A DNA stretch of 64,000 nt from an uncultured bacterium (lineage in GTDB: Bacteria; Chloroflexota; UBA5177; JANWHV01), in the NCBI GenBank assembly GCA_963729625.1, contig CAVSOU010000009.1, forward strand, positions 1 to 64,000. Reading direction: 5' to 3'. Positions 6,839 through 13,565 of this stretch are shown piece by piece (the stretch's first letter is position 1; every line of letters begins with the position of its first letter). Made by a program: the position numbers and the translations under genes. A model generated the notes under the pieces. That model was not told where the DNA came from and ran no database searches. It saw nothing but the letters and a program-made list of their open reading frames with translations.

Positions 6839-7636
6839 TCAGGCGTTCTGCGGCATCACCTCCCTTGGCGGCAGCGCGTGGGAGGGCGGCAGCAACGGCA
6901 CGTGGTCTTTCATGCGGTAGCTGGGCCCATTGATGGTGAGCACCTCGGCGCGGTGCAACACGCGGTCCAGGAGGGCGCCGGCGAGGACCTCGTCGCCCAG
7001 GAGCGGTCCCCATTCGGCAAAGCTCTTGTTGCTGGTCAGGATCAGGCAGCCAGCGCCGGTGTAGCGTGCATTGACGAGTTCAAAGAGCAACTGGCCTTGT
7101 TTGGGGTTGAGACGCGTGTAGCCGATCTCGTCGATCACCAGGACCTGCGGGCGGGTGTAGAAGCGCAGGCGACGACGCAGGGTATCCTTGCGGCCGGCGG
7201 CATCAAGGTCCTCGACCAGGGCGGACAGGCTGGTGAAGAAGGCGGAGTAGCCGGCTTCCAGGGCTAGCCAGGCTAAGGATCCGGCCACGTGGGTTTTTCC
7301 GACCCCGGGAGGACCGAGCAGGACAATACTGGTGGCCGTCTGGACGAAGGAGAGGCCGGCCAGTTCGCGCACCTGACGCTCGGAGAGCCCGGGCTGGAAG
7401 GAGAAGTCGAAGGCGTCCAGCGTCTTGCGGGCGGGCAGGTGGGCCGCTTGGCTGCGCCGCAGGAGCACGCGCTGACGACGCGCCTGGGCTTCGACGGCCA
7501 GGGCCCGGTAGAGGAAGGTCTCATACGAGACCTGCTGCTGGCGCGCTTCATCCAGGAGAGTCGGCAAGGCTTGGCCGAGATGGCGCAGTCCAAGTTGCAC
7601 GAGCGGCGAGCTGCTCTCGGCGAGAAAGGCGTCCAT
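6839..7636 (-). CDS. istB: IS21 helper ATPase IstB
   Basis: FDFSFQP, Walker A GPPGVGKT, IDEIGY, ILTSNK, LDRVLH. ATG overlaps the istA stop. Confidence 0.95.
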   Translation of the reverse strand: MDAFLAESSSPLVQLGLRHLGQALPTLLDEARQQQVSYETFLYRALAVEAQARRQRVLLRRSQAAHLPARKTLDAFDFSFQPGLSERQVRELAGLSFVQTATSIVLLGPPGVGKTHVAGSLAWLALEAGYSAFFTSLSALVEDLDAAGRKDTLRRRLRFYTRPQVLVIDEIGYTRLNPKQGQLLFELVNARYTGAGCLILTSNKSFAEWGPLLGDEVLAGALLDRVLHRAEVLTINGPSYRMKDHVPLLPPSHALPPREVMPQNA

Positions 7637-8190
7637 CAGCGCCACCCTTCCACGCCGTAGAGGGCATCATAGGCGGCAGTCGGCCGCTGGAGCACGGTCG
7701 GTGCCGGGAGCTGATGCGCCAAGGGTTGCTGCTGACGGCGCAGCGATGTGGCCGGCAGGACGTCGCGGAACTGCTCAGGATGGGTAACGATCTCCCCCGA
7801 GCGGGCCTGCTTGGGGAGCTGGGCCAGCTGCTCGCCGTGCCGCCAGATGGAGAGGTGGGCGCCATGGTCACGCACCTGCACCGTGCTGCCTGCCGCGCTG
7901 GCCGCGGAGGGCAGACCGTAGAGGACGCCGTCGAAGGAGAGATAGCCGTCCCAACTTACGCGGCGCTCCTCGGTCGCAAAGCGCTCCCAGGCGAAGGCCG
8001 CCGGCAACGGGCGCAGCTGCTCGGCGGCAAGCAGGTCACAGGGACGCTGTCGGGTGGTGCGGTGCACACGCCCATTGCGCCGATCACACCAGGCCAGGGC
8101 CTGCAGATTGAGGTCATCCAGGTCGCCAAAGTGCGCCCCGGGCCAGAGACTCCGTTTGACGACCCCAATCGTGCGCTCGATCTTCCCCTT
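7636..8190 (-). pseudogene. istA: IS21 transposase IstA, C-terminal part
   Basis: KGKIERTIG...RVHRTT...RRVSWDGYLSFDGVLY, continuing the 11597-12276 part. Confidence 0.9.
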
Positions 8191-8225
8191 GGACAAAGCT
8201 AGGCAATGCACCGGATGGCACTGGT

Positions 8226-8525
8226 GTGGCAGAAACCTTCAGCGTCACGCACCCATTCCACCCCTGGCATGGGCGCAGCTACGGCGTGCTGGCCCAGAAG
8301 TACCGCTGGGGTGATCAGCGCGTGTACTTCCAGGATGAGCAGGACCGCCTGCGGTCGCTCCCGCTCGCCTGGACCAGTCTGGCCGCACCAGACCCATTCG
8401 TGGCCCGTGCCGCGGGTCGCGCGTTCTTCCGGCCTGCCGATCTGCTGGCGGTTGCCCTGCTTTGCCAGCGGCTAGACAGCGTCTTATGCACAGGGCGAGG
8501 CCACGATGAGCAGTCAAAGGTGTAA
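8226..8525 (+). CDS. DUF5372 (Y4bD/Y4pK)-like protein; likely true 5' end lies at the other end of the element
   Basis: VTHPFHPWHG...LP.AWTSL...DPF...GRAFFR..DLL. No clear RBS before GTG 8226. Confidence 0.8.
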   Translation: MAETFSVTHPFHPWHGRSYGVLAQKYRWGDQRVYFQDEQDRLRSLPLAWTSLAAPDPFVARAAGRAFFRPADLLAVALLCQRLDSVLCTGRGHDEQSKV

Positions 8526-8562
8526 GCTCAATTATGCCGCATGTGTAAAGGGAATTATGCCG
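8521..8562 (+). repeat. Two 19-bp direct repeats TGTAA-N4-AATTATGCCG, putative operator
   Basis: Copies at 8521-8539 and 8544-8562, with an inverted related copy at 8712-8730. Confidence 0.7.
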
Positions 8563-8691
8563 TCCGGTGGCAGGGACCGTGAGACTTGCCCGCAGCCACT
8601 CTACCCGATCGTCGCTGCCTGTTCTCAGGAAACTTGCGAGAATGGTCCTCGCAATGGCCACGATGTGCTTGGCTCTCGGGGGCGATTCTGC

Positions 8692-8720
8692 TTGCACAAC
8701 GGCACCATGATGGTCATAAT
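8692..8720 (+). promoter_or_regulatory. Sigma70-like promoter of the HTH-small ORF-recombinase operon
   Basis: TTGCAC-N17-CATAAT upstream of an AGGAG RBS and ATG 8755. Confidence 0.65.
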
Positions 8721-8754
8721 GAGTTTGACATATCGGCCGTTGCAGGAGAGTCGC

Positions 8755-9270
8755 ATGCCTACCACCACCACTGCTGATGATGAGAAAGTCGCCGCTCTGC
8801 GCCTCGCTCACGCCCTGCATCATCAGGCTGCCCTGGTGACGGACCCGGCGTTTGGCGCAGGACAGTCGTTCTTTGATGCACGGGATCTGGTGCAAGTGAA
8901 GTACGAAATGTTGCGCCGGGTGCACGTCGACGGCCATAGCGTGAGCCAGGCGGCTCACGCCTTCGGGTTTTCCCGACCCTCATTCTATGCGGCACAGCGG
9001 GCCTGGCTGGCCGCCGGACTGGCTGGCCTGATCCCTCAGCGGCCTGGGCCACGCCGCGCGTCCAAGTTGGCACCCGCCTTGATGGCGTTTGTGGACGGCT
9101 GTTTGCACCGTGAGCCCACCTTGCGGGCACGCGATCTTGCCGCTCGACTCGCGGAGCAATTCGGCGTGCAGGTGCACCCCCGGAGCATTGAGCGGGCCTT
9201 GGTACGCCGGGGAAACCCGTTGCTGGCGCGGCTGCCGCGCCAGTTCCGAGAGGAGGAGCTGAGTCCATGA
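8755..9270 (+). CDS. Helix-turn-helix protein of the recombinase element
   Basis: FFDARDLVQVKYEMLR...FGFSRPSFY...GL.GLIPQRPGPR...VHPRSIERAL, with an RBS before ATG. Confidence 0.85.
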   Translation: MPTTTTADDEKVAALRLAHALHHQAALVTDPAFGAGQSFFDARDLVQVKYEMLRRVHVDGHSVSQAAHAFGFSRPSFYAAQRAWLAAGLAGLIPQRPGPRRASKLAPALMAFVDGCLHREPTLRARDLAARLAEQFGVQVHPRSIERALVRRGNPLLARLPRQFREEELSP

Positions 9271-9521
9271 GCGCTGTCTATGAAACCTTGCGCGGTGCTG
9301 CCCAGCTGCAGCAGCTGCCCGTCGCCTTCGCCCGCGATTGGGAGCTGCTGCGGCGGCAGGGTATGACGGCCTGGTTGCAGGCGTCTCCGGCGCTCGCACC
9401 GCCGACCCAGCTCACGTGGTCCCTGGCCAAGCCAGCCGGTGCGCCCGCGTGCGTGTTGCCTGCTCTGGCGCACCTGCTCAGCGCGATGATTCTCGCTCAG
9501 CGAGGGGAGCACGCCCCATGA
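9267..9521 (+). CDS. Small hypothetical protein of the recombinase element
   Basis: GGAGG RBS, ATGA overlaps on both sides, YE.LR...LL.RQGMTAW motif. Confidence 0.75.
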   Translation: MSAVYETLRGAAQLQQLPVAFARDWELLRRQGMTAWLQASPALAPPTQLTWSLAKPAGAPACVLPALAHLLSAMILAQRGEHAP

Positions 9522-11590
9522 TGGCTGCACAGGAGAAAGTCAGTGCCCAGCATCTTGCCCGTATGGCCTACCTGTATGTCCGCCAAAGCACGGTGCGCCA
9601 AGTGTTTGAGAACACGGAAAGCACGGTGCGGCAGTATGCGCTGCGCGAGCGGGCCATCGCACTGGGGTGGCCTCCAGAGCGCATCGTCGTCGTAGACAGT
9701 GACTTGGGGCAGTCTGCAGCCTCGGCGGTCGACCGCGCCGGCTTCCAGACGCTTGTCGCCGAGGTCGGCTTGGGGCATGTCGGCATAGTCCTTGGTCTGG
9801 AAGTGTCGCGCCTGGCGCGCAACAACAGTGACTGGCATCACTTGCTGGAGATCTGCGCCTTGACCGAGACCTTGATCCTGGATGAGGACGGCATCTATGA
9901 TCCCGGTCACTTCAACGATCGCCTCTTGCTCGGCTTGAAAGGCACGATGAGTGAGGCCGAGCTCCATGTCTTGCACGCCCGGCTTCGTGGCGGCATTCTG
10001 AGCAAGGCCCGGCGAGGAGAATTGCCGATCCCGTTGCCGATTGGTTTTGTGCGCACCGAAAACGGTACGGTGGTGCTCGACCCTGACGCGCAGATCCAAC
10101 ACGCCGTCCGGCTGTTCTTCGCCACGTTCGCGCGCACCGGCTCCGCCTGGACGACGGTCAAGGTATTCCGAGAGCAGGGCTTGCTCTTCCCGCGTCGTCT
10201 GCACAGCGGCCCCCATAAGGGTGAAGTGCTCTGGGCGCCGCTCTTGCATAGCACCTGCCTGCATCTCTTGCACAACCCACGCTATGCCGGGGCGTCCTTT
10301 TTTGGTCGCACCCGCCAGCACAAACTGGGAGACGGCCGGGTGCGCAGTCGCCTTCTGCCGCAGGACCACTGGCTGGCCCTGCATCAGAATGCGCATGCCG
10401 GCTACATCAGCTGGGCCGACTTTGAACAGAATCGGGCGCGTCTGCTCGAGAATGCCCAGGCGTGCGGCCAGGACCGGCGACACGGGCCGCCACGGGAGGG
10501 GCCGGCGCTGCTGCAGGGTCTCGTCCTGTGCGGCCGGTGCGGGGAGCGGATGACGGTGCGTTATCATCGGCACCACGCGCAGCTCATGCCAAGCTACCTC
10601 TGCCAGCGTGTCGGGATTGAGCACGGCGACCATCTCTGCCAGGTCGTGCCGGGGGCACGTCTGGACCAGTTGATCGGGGAGTTGTTGGTCGCTACGATGA
10701 CCCCCGCCAGCGTGGAGGTCGCACTCGCCGTGCAAGCGGAAGTCGCGCAGGACGTGGAAAACACGGACCGCCTGCGCTTGCTGCAGGTAGAGCGCGCTCG
10801 CTACGACGCCGATCTCGCAGCCCGGCGCTTCCGCCAGGTGGATCCTGACAATCGCCTGGTCGCGGCCGTCCTGGAAGCGGAGTGGAACGAGCAATTGCGC
10901 CTGCTCACAGAGGCCCAGGCGACGTACGATCAGCAGTGCCAGGCCGATCGGCAACAGATCAGCGCGCACGACCGGGCGGCCCTCGTGGAGCTGACCGCGG
11001 ACTTTGCCCGTCTCTGGCGTGACCCGCACACTCCCGACCGCGAGCGCAAACGCATCGCACGTCTTCTCCTCGCGGATGTGACCATCACCAAACAGGACGA
11101 CCATATCCTGGCCCAAGTCCGCTTCGTCGGCGGCGCAACCCGCACACTGCAGGTTCCCTTGAGCCATGACTCCAGCCAGTTCCACACCACCGACCCGGCT
11201 ATCGTGGCCCAGATAGACGACCTGCTCGACCAGTACACGGATGCCGGTGTGGCGCAGGTGCTCAATGAACGTGGCCTCCAGACCTTCACGGGGCGCCCAT
11301 TCACCGCCACCCGCATCACCAGCCTGCGAAAGCGGTGCCACCTACGGGACCGCTACACCAGATTGCGCGCGGCAGGCTTGTTGACCCGCCGCGAGATGGC
11401 CGCGATTCTGGGCATCTCGACTGCCACGGTGCCGGTCTGGCGAGACCAGGGTACGCTCCGCGCCTACACCTATAATGATCAGGGTGCCTGCCTCTATGAG
11501 CCGACCGGCAACTGCCCGCCGCAGAAATACATCACCCGCTACCGTACGCGAAGAATCCTACAGCAGCAGCATGTTGGAGGTGCAGTATGA
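9518..11590 (+). CDS. Large serine recombinase (resolvase, recombinase, zinc-ribbon and C-terminal HTH domains)
   Basis: AYLYVRQST catalytic Ser, EVSRLARN, LL.NPRYAG, LLQGLVLCGRCG. Confidence 0.95.
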   Translation: MMAAQEKVSAQHLARMAYLYVRQSTVRQVFENTESTVRQYALRERAIALGWPPERIVVVDSDLGQSAASAVDRAGFQTLVAEVGLGHVGIVLGLEVSRLARNNSDWHHLLEICALTETLILDEDGIYDPGHFNDRLLLGLKGTMSEAELHVLHARLRGGILSKARRGELPIPLPIGFVRTENGTVVLDPDAQIQHAVRLFFATFARTGSAWTTVKVFREQGLLFPRRLHSGPHKGEVLWAPLLHSTCLHLLHNPRYAGASFFGRTRQHKLGDGRVRSRLLPQDHWLALHQNAHAGYISWADFEQNRARLLENAQACGQDRRHGPPREGPALLQGLVLCGRCGERMTVRYHRHHAQLMPSYLCQRVGIEHGDHLCQVVPGARLDQLIGELLVATMTPASVEVALAVQAEVAQDVENTDRLRLLQVERARYDADLAARRFRQVDPDNRLVAAVLEAEWNEQLRLLTEAQATYDQQCQADRQQISAHDRAALVELTADFARLWRDPHTPDRERKRIARLLLADVTITKQDDHILAQVRFVGGATRTLQVPLSHDSSQFHTTDPAIVAQIDDLLDQYTDAGVAQVLNERGLQTFTGRPFTATRITSLRKRCHLRDRYTRLRAAGLLTRREMAAILGISTATVPVWRDQGTLRAYTYNDQGACLYEPTGNCPPQKYITRYRTRRILQQQHVGGAV

Positions 11591-11596
11591 GACCCA

Positions 11597-12276
11597 CCCC
11601 TTCGTCTGGGGGGTGTAGGGCTTACAGACGCGAATGCTCAGGCCCACGGAGGCGGCAAAGTCGGCAAAGCGGGCATTCCAGACTGGGATCTGGCCGTCCA
11701 TGTCGACCAGCACGCTCTTCATGCGGTCCGTCAGCGCCACCTGCGGCAGACCGCCAAAGTACTCGCAGGCCCGCATCAGGCCGCGAATCAAGGTCGATGT
11801 ATCACAGCGCTTGCTGAACTGCACAAAGCGCATGCGAGAATAACCCAGCACGGCCGAGAACCCGTAGAGCTTGTGTGTCGTCCCCTCTCGCTCGTAGACA
11901 AACTCGCCCCAATCGAACTGTAGTTGCTCCCCCGGTCCCGTCTCGTACCGCACCACCGGCTGGTGCCCGGCCGTCCCCAGTCGAAAGGGCTGCACAAAGT
12001 CCTTCAAAATGGTGATGCTGCCCGTATACCCCTGCGCCTGCAGCCGCTCGCGCATCGTCTCACAGTTATAGAGATGATCCTCGCGCAGCCAGGCCATGAT
12101 CTGCTCCTTATAGGGATCCAGCTTCGACCGCCGCCGCGGCCGTGCTGCTGGGGACGGCGCACCACGCAGGTACTTGCGTACCGTGTTGCGCGAATGTTGG
12201 AGTTCCCTGGCAATCGCCCGGATCGGTTTCCCTTCCGTGGCCAGTCCCAGTATCTTGTTCACGGTCCCACTCCTTA
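11597..12276 (-). pseudogene. istA: IS21 transposase IstA, N-terminal and catalytic part
   Basis: IARELQHSRNTVRKYL, RYETGPGEQLQFDW, LGYSR, TDRMK, CKPYTPQTKG. Start codon displaced to 13570-13572. Confidence 0.9.
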
Positions 12277-13565
12277 GGACCCATCCATAAATAACATTGT
12301 TACTATTTGGTGTGCGGCAGGATGGTGTAGTTCCATTCGCCATGGAAGTCGGCCCGCTCGATGTGCAGACTGTCCATCTCCGCCTCGGTTGGGGTGATGC
12401 CGGTCGGGTAGGCGTGGGTATCCAGGTAACTGGTCACGGTCAGACCCGTCGTAGTTGTCGTCGCCGCAATCAGGCTGAGGATCACCGCGTAGCTGAGCAG
12501 CGGCCGGCCCCGCCAGTTCTGGCTGATGTAGGCAAAGAGCCGGTGCTCAATCTTGTTCCACTTGCTGGTGCCCGGCGGGTAGTGGCACACCGTGATGGCC
12601 AGACCGGTCTCATCTGCCAGGCGCTGCAACTCCCACTTCCACAGGCGCACGCGCGACCCATTGCTGCCGCCGCCATCCGCGGTGATCAGCAGGCGCTGGG
12701 CCAGCGGGTAGTGCGCCTGGCCCGCTTCCTGCCACCAGCGGCGGACACTCGCCACCGCAAAGGCGGCCGTATCATGGTCGATACCGACGTTCACCCAGCC
12801 GGCATTCTCGGCCAGGTCATAAACCCCATAGGGGCTCACCCGTCCTTGGCCCGCGATGGGGAAGTCGTAGACCCGTACTTCCTCCGGCTGGCCTTTGGGT
12901 CGCCACTCCCGGCCCCCGTTCTTGAAGTCCCCGACCAGTTCTTTCTTCTTGGTGTCCACGGAGATGGCCGGCTCGCCCGCCGCCACAAACCCCGTCGCCG
13001 TGGCGTTGATGTGCTCGAACTGGGCATCGCGATCGGCATGGCCTGTCCCTTCCCAGGTCTTGCTGGCGGCCTGCAGACTGTACCGGAGTTCGTGCAGGAT
13101 GTTGGCCACTTTCTGATAGCTGACCTGATGGCCTTTCGCCTGCAATGCGGCCGTCAGCCGCCGCAGACTCAGACAAGTCCAGCGCAACGGGGATTCGGGG
13201 TCGCCGCGCGTCACCGGTTCCACCATCCCCTCCAGGTCCGCCCGCAGGCTCGGATCATGCGTCTCCAGCGACTTGCGACCGCCGCCCGGTCGGCGCACGC
13301 GTCCGGGTGCCGCGCTGGGCACCTGCCCGCTCAGTTCCCGTATCCCCAGACGGATTACCGGCCGCGACAGCCCTGTGGCCCGCGACACCAGGGTGATCCC
13401 GCCCCAGCCAACCGCTACTGCTTCTGTGGCAGCCACGGCCCGCCGCCCCCGCTCATCCAGGTGCCTCGCGACGCGGGCATACCGCTCGGCTATCCTGCTT
13501 TCCTCATCCATGCCTCCACTCTACGCTTGCCCGCTCAATCGCAAACGTTGTTTGTTGATAAGTCC
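12277..13565 (-). mobile_element. ISAzo13-family insertion sequence
   Basis: Imperfect 19-bp inverted repeats GGACccATCcAtAAAtAAC and GGACttATCaAcAAAcAAC. TTA duplication at 12274-12276 and 13566-13568. Confidence 0.9.
12303..13511 (-). CDS. ISAzo13 DDE transposase
   Basis: TRGDPESPLRWT, ISVDTKKKELVG, TADGGGSNG, PPGTSKWNKIEHRLF, FHGEWNY. Confidence 0.95.
   Translation of the reverse strand: MDEESRIAERYARVARHLDERGRRAVAATEAVAVGWGGITLVSRATGLSRPVIRLGIRELSGQVPSAAPGRVRRPGGGRKSLETHDPSLRADLEGMVEPVTRGDPESPLRWTCLSLRRLTAALQAKGHQVSYQKVANILHELRYSLQAASKTWEGTGHADRDAQFEHINATATGFVAAGEPAISVDTKKKELVGDFKNGGREWRPKGQPEEVRVYDFPIAGQGRVSPYGVYDLAENAGWVNVGIDHDTAAFAVASVRRWWQEAGQAHYPLAQRLLITADGGGSNGSRVRLWKWELQRLADETGLAITVCHYPPGTSKWNKIEHRLFAYISQNWRGRPLLSYAVILSLIAATTTTTGLTVTSYLDTHAYPTGITPTEAEMDSLHIERADFHGEWNYTILPHTK

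Follow-up and report, generated by a model that had tools for sequence, protein, structure and literature searches.

A recombinase element in an istA gene and its joined ends

The stretch of DNA analysed here, hereafter the window, comprises positions 1 to 64,000 of contig CAVSOU010000009.1 (GenBank assembly GCA_963729625.1) from an uncultured bacterium of the Chloroflexota. At positions 8191–11602 it carries a 3.4-kb large serine recombinase (LSR) element with the gene order DUF5372, helix-turn-helix (HTH) protein, small open reading frame (ORF) and LSR; all four ORFs lie on the same strand according to a scan for ORFs and Pfam families over positions 8185–11602. The target of the insertion is the istA gene of an IS21 insertion sequence (IS), on the minus strand. 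The coordinates are collected in Table 1.

When the right end of the element (11587–11602) is joined to its left end (8191 onward) through a single core, an ATG-started, stop-free frame runs into ORF 8226–8525, the body of the DUF5372 gene. An original prediction, made from the sequence of the window, had claimed this in-frame ORF, and it was reproduced here. The start signals that had been described are also in place. GGAGG is found at 11576–11580, where it overlaps the conserved arm GAGGTGCAGT (11577–11586) and lies six bases before ATG 11587. This ATG shares an ATGA with the stop codon of the LSR (11587–11590), and the same overlap is present at the two preceding gene borders, 9267–9270 and 9518–9521.

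In the integrated state, the frame of DUF5372 contains a stop at 8157 and then no ATG, GTG or TTG until GTG 8226, which is the sole start available to the gene. The protein read from it matches PF17342 with E = 1.5e-20 and 73.4 bits (curated cut-off 25) at profile positions 1–76 of 78. The promoter-like site given in Table 1 is the only one on the plus strand between the element genes, and it places the integrated DUF5372 5' of the promoter, as had been expected. The original prediction interpreted these features as a gene that would be completed by excision; judged from the comparison with relatives and from one natural joined contig, this interpretation is strongly supported.

The proposed core had to be shortened. 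The repeat CCCCTT is indeed present (8185–8190), but the exchanged unit is only its last 2 nt, the dinucleotide TT at 8189–8190 (attL) and 11601–11602, and not all 6 bp. Each TT lies 14 nt from an inverted-repeat arm, GAGGTGCAGT (11577–11586) on one side and AATGCAC (8205–8211) on the other. If 8191–11602 is taken out and a single TT retained, an IstA frame of 432 aa that runs through the catalytic-glutamate motif is recovered. The claim that attP is situated inside the DUF5372 gene agrees with this geometry, which places it between codons 5 and 6 and is conserved in relatives.

Table 1. Features of the LSR element and of the interrupted IS21 in the window.
Feature	Position	Strand	Description
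istB	6839–7645		after the istA C-terminal part
istA, C-terminal part	7636–8190	−	Mu-transpos_C_2
Element left end	8191–8225	+	codons 6–17 of the joined DUF5372 frame; no start codon
Left attP arm AATGCAC	8205–8211		within the left end of the element
DUF5372 body	8226–8525	+	PF17342 domain at aa 7–82 of the GTG-started ORF
Promoter-like site TGCACA-16-CATAAT	8693–8720	+	3' of DUF5372, 5' of the HTH gene
HTH protein	8755–9270	+	HTH_32, HTH_28, HTH_29, HTH_23
Small ORF, 84 aa	9267–9521	+	ATGA overlap with both neighbours
LSR, 689 aa	9518–11590	+	Resolvase, Recombinase and Zn_ribbon_recom domains, coiled coil, C-terminal MerR/excisionase-like HTH
Element right end	11576–11602	+	GGAGG, arm, ATG 11587 plus five codons, crossover TT
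istA, N-terminal part	11603–12343	−	rve domain, ending at the junction

The HTH protein resembles the N-terminal domains of IS630 and IS481 transposases. The small ORF matched no Pfam family; its relatives across phyla have a common YExLR...GMxAW...LAxM motif. The LSR shows matches to PF00239 (E = 3.3e-16), PF07508 and PF13408 at 9521–11590. Its C-terminal extension (window 11375–11470, residues ~618–680) matches HTH_17 (E = 5.6e-4) and phrog_2474 (E = 1.6e-7), and such a MerR-like or excisionase-like HTH extension is unusual among the serine integrases known to us.

Another contig of the genome (G000:C16:47636–51136) carries the element once more, with the same flanks. The block common to this copy and window positions 7191–12277 comprises 5087 nt with 99.92% identity, its ends lying within istB and istA. 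It may represent a duplicated IS21 together with its element, a variant of the strain or a repeat in the assembly. No copy of the window's IS21 without the insertion was found in its own genome. The interrupted IS21 is adjoined by a 402-aa ORF (12303–13511, minus strand), which is transposase-like by eye.

Conservation of the fusion and of the attachment sites

Of 401 genomes of the window's phylum, 18 gave a match to PF17342, 12 of them above the cut-off. Sixteen stretches were taken, and 11 loci including the window have both element ends, corresponding to 9 distinct elements. An in-frame start followed by an open frame was observed in all 11 loci, that is, in all 9 distinct elements, and the dinucleotides NN of the arrangement arm-14-NN-14-arm match in 10 of the 11 (the exception is L035).

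A search of species-representative genomes with an LSR alignment gave at least 600 relatives, of which the best 80 were analysed. Their hosts belong to the Chloroflexota, Acidobacteriota, Gemmatimonadota, Planctomycetota, Verrucomicrobiota, Actinomycetota, several proteobacterial classes and the Bacillota, with one archaeon. DUF5372 lies upstream of the LSR on the same strand in 77 of the 80 relatives, the other three being cut by contig ends, and the HTH protein is also present in 77 of the 80. The junction was tested by script in 66 relatives; of the 14 left out, 8 are cut by contig ends and 6 are failures of the motif search. In 61 of the 66 loci the arm is directly followed by a start codon whose frame is that of the domain and stays open up to it, and L063, L067, L096, L099, L100 and L107 conform as well when read by eye. 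With L094 left out as a contig-end cut, the fusion is in frame and stop-free in 67 of 71 testable loci (61 by script and 6 by eye), whereas about one third would be expected by chance, the value that the original prediction had set against itself. The observation is thus real and far beyond chance.

The coding signature was counted in the loci with matching dinucleotides, which give 53 distinct joined regions. The joined DUF5372 frame is free of stops in all 53. Within the left-end stretch, 0 of 53 regions have a stop in the DUF5372 frame, whereas the other two frames are interrupted in 38 and 31 of 53. The spacing between the left arm and the domain's first His codon takes two values, 45 nt for 48 loci and 42 nt for 5, each a multiple of 3; on plasmid pNGR234a it is 48 nt, again whole codons. 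It should be noted that a tie-break in the choice of the left arm favoured the usual distance, which limits these counts. In 34 of the 53 regions, no in-frame ATG, GTG or TTG is present inside the element before the domain.

The signals on the right side behave similarly. The triplet after the arm is ATG in 40 of 53 regions and GTG in 11, and the remaining 2 start 3 nt later. On a FastTree phylogeny of 56 LSRs (median pairwise identity 57%, 32 clusters at 70% identity), the type of start (ATG, GTG or the start 3 nt later) changes at least 8 times, and the start itself is never lost. GAGG is found at −10 to −7 in 47 of 53 regions. Its first two bases and the start codon have no mirror in the left arm, so these bases fit a ribosome site better than a recombinase site. 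In 52 of 53 regions the start is no more than ~20 nt away from the LSR stop, and in 17 the two overlap as ATGA. A promoter-like site between DUF5372 and the HTH gene was detected in 39 of 67 distinct relatives, compared with 8 of 67 shuffles, and 20 of the 67 combine TTGACA with CATAAT. The proteins reported by gene callers for DUF5372 have 79–102 aa; the joined frame would mean that the gene is mis-started as a rule.

Two loci are likely decayed copies, L073 with a stop or 1-nt offset in the joined frame and L044 with three stop codons in the LSR.

The same geometry recurs at the crossover. The right-end arm GAGGTGCAGT is common to all elements, and the left arm, ACTGCAC or a near variant, is its inverted repeat; the 53 distinct junctions give the attP consensus GTGCAGT-14-TT-14-ACTGCAC, an imperfect inverted repeat around the core. 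Crossover dinucleotides match in 58 of the 66 script-tested loci, with 56 TT, 1 CT and 1 AC. Several independent breakpoints are available. Contigs of run X1, which contains 86% of the sampled words of the element, contain the same element between different flanks, with breaks at 8189 and 11604, and relatives that are 90–95% alike in runs X2 and X3 break at 11602. In Candidatus Accumulibacter (L123), both flanks map to an uninterrupted paralogous IS21 and overlap by exactly 2 nt. Multiple copies of the element were found in G047 and G401. The three near-identical copies of G047 lie in IS1380-like targets, which, in sequences read by eye, are in frame under the 14-2-14 geometry only. A junction made of the whole 6–8-bp repeat "in register" was considered for this genome and rejected, the core CCGCGG containing CG twice and only 14-2-14 preserving the target frame. 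An attP-like pair at L080:361–406 has a spacing of 32 nt and, by eye, an in-frame stop, and was judged to be due to chance. Several assemblies give element-length contigs of 3.3–3.5 kb; one of them (L065) has 3347 nt for an element of 3345, and the 2 additional nucleotides are as expected for a multi-copy repeat that breaks an assembly at its ends.

The targets of the family are genes for transposases or recombinases that belong to other mobile elements. Their attB consensus, cTCgac....cC.TT, lies at rve-type targets over the sequence of the catalytic-glutamate motif, and the target gene there is read from the opposite strand. Flanking ORFs matched known families in 33 of 50 loci (rve, rve_3, Mu-transpos_C_2, IstB, IS66, IS91 Y2_Tnp, Phage_integrase), and 29 of 50 remain when HTH-only matches are set aside; as the longest abutting frame was scanned, this count is a lower bound. 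The LSR family occurs on 455 plasmid records, mostly of rhizobia, at 877 places. In Sinorhizobium fredii NGR234 it occupies 3 places on the symbiosis plasmid pNGR234a and 6 on the second replicon. One copy on pNGR234a is L138 (NC_000914.2 33989–37258). In this copy TT matches TT, the joined frame is open by eye, and the annotated DUF5372 start is an internal GTG; its small ORF (L138:2224–2490) bears the RefSeq name "transposase".

A joined form was also met as natural DNA. When metagenome contigs were scanned for the two arms at a spacing of 30 nt, a single match was obtained, a contig of 2689 nt (L137), whose minus strand contains the full LSR, arm, start codon, crossover and a complete DUF5372 ORF of the type expected. 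The features of this contig follow the order predicted for the circle, in which DUF5372 comes after the recombinase. About 60 nt after DUF5372 there is a terminator-like hairpin, then TTGACA-16-CATAAT (11 of 12 matches) and, by eye, the apparent start of a next gene. A sigma-70 consensus scan of this single natural junction (545–590) revealed no promoter-like site there, the only one being 3' of DUF5372. Since the ends share just the crossover dinucleotide, an assembler should, in our estimation, need junction-spanning reads to join them. The attP pattern had no match in 5 host genomes or in 401 further genomes of another phylum, where reversed-pattern controls also gave 0, nor in viral contigs, in which 3 relatives of the LSR were found, all within larger contigs. 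The junction of the joined contig had no blastn match among plasmids. No circle junction was seen in the contigs of runs X2, X3 and X8, contigs being apt to drop rare forms.

DUF5372 as a putative recombinase cofactor

An AlphaFold2 model of DUF5372, built from an alignment of 62 sequences (predicted local distance difference test, pLDDT, 83.5), has a five-stranded barrel followed by two helices, and the protein is accordingly modelled as a small SH3-like barrel with a C-terminal helix. Nothing in NCBIfam or PHROGs suggested a function by likeness, a protein-atlas search with DUF5372 returned DUF5372 clusters only, and a PDB profile search gave no solved sequence relative.

The predicted complex of DUF5372 and the LSR reached a median score of 0.77 over three runs, compared with 0.01 for the best of 3 controls. 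The three runs agree in at least 68% of the contacts, with a partner pLDDT of at least 70. The mark used for this score is reached by 116 of 157 solved complexes and by 2 of 215 mismatched pairs, and it is only a rough guide here, our own alignments having been used. On the LSR, the interface consists of residues 336–341, 392–415, 478–516 and 521–540, which by residue range correspond to the zinc ribbon and to either end of the coiled coil. The DUF5372 side is formed by residues 21–25 and 68–101 and includes most of the positions conserved in the family. The motifs HPFHP and GR..FR..DLL and, on the LSR, residues ~494–521 belong to this predicted interface. The modelling supports binding of DUF5372 to the LSR at the junction of zinc ribbon and coiled coil. 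Verified recombination directionality factors (RDFs) are reported to bind the LSR at the junction of its second DNA-binding domain (DBD2) and coiled coil, and they have no common fold (PMC12286644). The suggestion of the original prediction that DUF5372 could be a state-dependent directionality or integration factor gains support from this predicted complex.

Variants with DUF5372 and the LSR as the only two genes also occur, one intact (L118) and one whose LSR carries three stops (L044), and their existence makes these two genes look like the core module. The intact variant (L118:141–2559, ~2.4 kb) has neither the HTH nor the small gene, and its DUF5372 overlaps the start of the LSR; by eye, the crossover T and the left end make an in-frame TTG at its attL.

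On this basis, we consider it likely that the element carries attP inside DUF5372 in such a way that the gene is whole only when excised, and that its product is a state-dependent cofactor of the recombinase. The element would move by cut-and-paste via the LSR, with the attP of the circle between codons 5 and 6. Upon integration, a Shine-Dalgarno-like GAGG, the start codon and five codons come to lie at the right end, beside the LSR stop, and the remainder of DUF5372 at the left end, upstream of the element promoter. Since integration separates the start region from the body, an excised circle (or a tandem copy) is needed for the gene to be whole. Excision would join the ends at TT and make DUF5372 the last cistron in the order promoter, HTH, small ORF, LSR and DUF5372, where it would be positioned for translational coupling to the LSR. 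A peptide across the junction would be of the type M-x-x-x-P-W.

The synthesis of such a cofactor would report the excised state. We infer that the excised form is the main source of the protein, and that recombination is influenced by it in its direction. It would then drive or license the re-integration of a non-replicating circle, or block its re-excision, and would be switched off by the resulting integration. By analogy, promotion or licensing of integration, or a block to re-excision, is most probably its role: a circle that does not replicate must integrate quickly, and joined-end signals of other elements serve insertion (reportedly in Tn4451). A further-reaching version, possible but tentative, is that DUF5372 acts as a mirror-image directionality factor, the LSR alone excising and the LSR with DUF5372 integrating, in a family that parasitises ISs at the sequence of their catalytic motif. 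If true, each state of the element would make exactly the proteins for leaving that state, and two genes would form a self-contained direction switch.

Several points weigh against a gene that is made whole by excision and encodes a cofactor. Four of the 71 loci are exceptions: the joined frame of L073 is broken by a stop or shifted by 1 nt, and L071, L105 and L109 yielded no right arm. An in-frame GTG or TTG inside the element, mostly a GTG 2–4 codons before the domain, is present in 19 of 53 relatives; from these codons, as from GTG 8226 in the window, a shorter protein could be translated without excision. The joined frame overlies the binding site of the LSR, so its conservation must partly reflect a constraint on the DNA, and as the elements share ancestry, the loci are not independent. 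The joined contig is the only one found, and being shorter than the element it does not distinguish a circle from a tandem copy; the circle junction was not seen in the contigs of run X1. As to the protein, its fold matches only generic SH3, KOW and Tudor barrels (Foldseek E = 3e-3; VIA-align Z = 5.7, root-mean-square deviation 1.3, 44 aligned residues), and its charge is inconsistent, with isoelectric points that vary widely around a median of ~7. Finally, in the textbook logic of LSRs the recombinase suffices for integration and excision requires a cofactor, so that a cofactor made only after excision is unexpected.

We compared this reading with other explanations of the same data. An in-frame junction by coincidence would be conceivable for the window taken singly, given that one junction is in frame one third of the time and that GC-rich DNA is poor in stops; the 67 of 71 relatives in frame and the coding signature refute it, and we regard it as practically excluded. 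It is also quite improbable that DUF5372 is an ordinary gene, translated during integration from an internal or unusual start, with the open junction as a by-product of LSR site constraints. This explanation would account for a Pfam domain that is complete in the integrated ORF (profile positions 1–76 of 78), for the 79–102-aa proteins of gene callers, for the internal GTG or TTG codons of 19 of 53 relatives and for a joined region that doubles as LSR binding site. It does not account for the 34 of 53 regions that lack any internal start, nor for the 56–59 nt before the domain, which are free of stops in the one frame (0 of 53 against 38 and 31) and vary in length by whole codons. Nor would it lead one to expect that the GA of GAGG and the start codon have no mirror in the left arm, that start codons are swapped or shifted by 3 nt and never lost, that a promoter-like site is conserved 3' of DUF5372, or that at rve-type targets with Pfam-matched flank frames the interrupted transposase gene is on the opposite strand.

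The two other explanations accept the joined gene. One of them, which we hold to be unlikely, takes DUF5372 for a canonical RDF made from the circle, which would stimulate attL × attR, block attP × attB, lock the excised state and trigger excision of sister copies. The predicted docking site is indeed that of verified RDFs. In canonical LSR sites the attB half-site motif is nearer to the centre than the attP arm; the same is the case here, and with attP and attB of canonical appearance integration by the LSR alone would be the default. On the other hand, a non-replicating circle could not persist if it blocked its own integration, the factor would be missing at the first excision, the two-gene elements carry no further accessory gene, and circle-specific signals elsewhere, reportedly in Tn4451, serve insertion or transfer. 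The other explanation, that the relevant joined form is a tandem or head-to-tail array or a larger replicon carrying attP rather than a free 3.4-kb circle, seems very improbable to us: no tandem was found among the 80 loci, the 5 host genomes and the 401 further genomes, and element-sized contigs end at the TT sites (L065, 3347 nt versus 3345), although the circularity of a joined contig of just 2689 nt is not demonstrable.

Serine integrases are strictly directional, and how direction is controlled in small non-phage elements without a regulatory circuit is an open question. In the excised-state reading that we prefer, the physical state of the element, integrated or excised, would be encoded in the wholeness of a cofactor gene, and DUF5372 would gain its first functional context and a testable partner. 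Should the cofactor set the direction, an LSR, a cofactor of ~100 aa and a defined 46-bp attP would make a compact pair for genome engineering. The preference for transposase genes represents one mobile element parasitising others. The comparison also defines a widespread element family, which has at least 600 relatives among species-representative genomes and is present on 455 plasmid records, pNGR234a being one of them.

Relation to known recombination systems

The term "DUF5372" returned no papers in the openly searchable literature, and the element family was not found described in the literature on serine recombinases, circles and transposase targets, with subscription journals and preprint supplements outside our reach. 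A literature search on NGR234 and resolvases gave nothing relevant. The searchable literature contained no earlier case of a gene whole only in the circle in bacteria, with serine recombinases or concerning an accessory factor.

RDFs are the nearest functional comparison. DUF5372 resembles phiC31 gp3, Bxb1 gp47 and SPbeta SprB in being a small accessory protein and in its predicted docking at the junction of zinc ribbon (DBD2) and coiled coil, but it has no relation to them in sequence or fold. Known RDFs are made from the integrated prophage and permit its excision, whereas the DUF5372 gene is whole only after excision.

Expression that depends on the joining of ends is known at the level of transcription. 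Tn916 is said to show circle-dependent transcription by read-through across its joined ends, and circles of the IS3, IS30 and IS21 families have junction promoters. In these systems, as in the present element, gene expression depends on end joining, but it is the coding frame that is concerned here, and we know of no system of this type that splits a coding frame from its start codon.

Closer in enzyme class are Tn4451 and Tn4453, whose joined circle ends reportedly assemble a promoter that drives the recombinase TnpX (Lyras and Rood 2000). Tn4451 is likewise an LSR element with a circular intermediate, the joined ends of which make an expression signal that is absent when integrated; a promoter is assembled there, and an ORF with its start codon here. 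TnpX-like enzymes belong to the DUF4368 clade, in 63% of which the DUF4368 domain is present, as stated by Durrant et al. 2022 (PMC10083194). The LSR of the window gave no DUF4368 match at E 0.01 or better.

Multi-targeting LSRs are characterised in the same study (PMC10083194) by a TT core, many targets per lineage, AT-rich relaxed targets and membership of the TndX/DUF4368 clade. The family of the window is similar in its TT crossover core and its many target sites and differs from them in having a defined attB motif inside transposase genes.

The closest parallel in architecture is found in the SSV-type ("suicidal") tyrosine integrases of archaeal viruses and plasmids (SSV1, pTN3, pT26-2), which, as outlined in a review, have the att site in their own gene and are fragmented on integration (PMC8371274). 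The self-splitting of an integrase is called exclusive to archaea in that review (PMC8371274). The present element shares with this type an att site inside one of its own genes, which is whole only as a circle. The difference lies in what is split: SSV splits the tyrosine recombinase itself, whereas here the serine LSR (9518–11590) stays intact and an accessory gene is divided, with only five codons and the ribosome site detached, in a family whose hosts are mostly bacteria.

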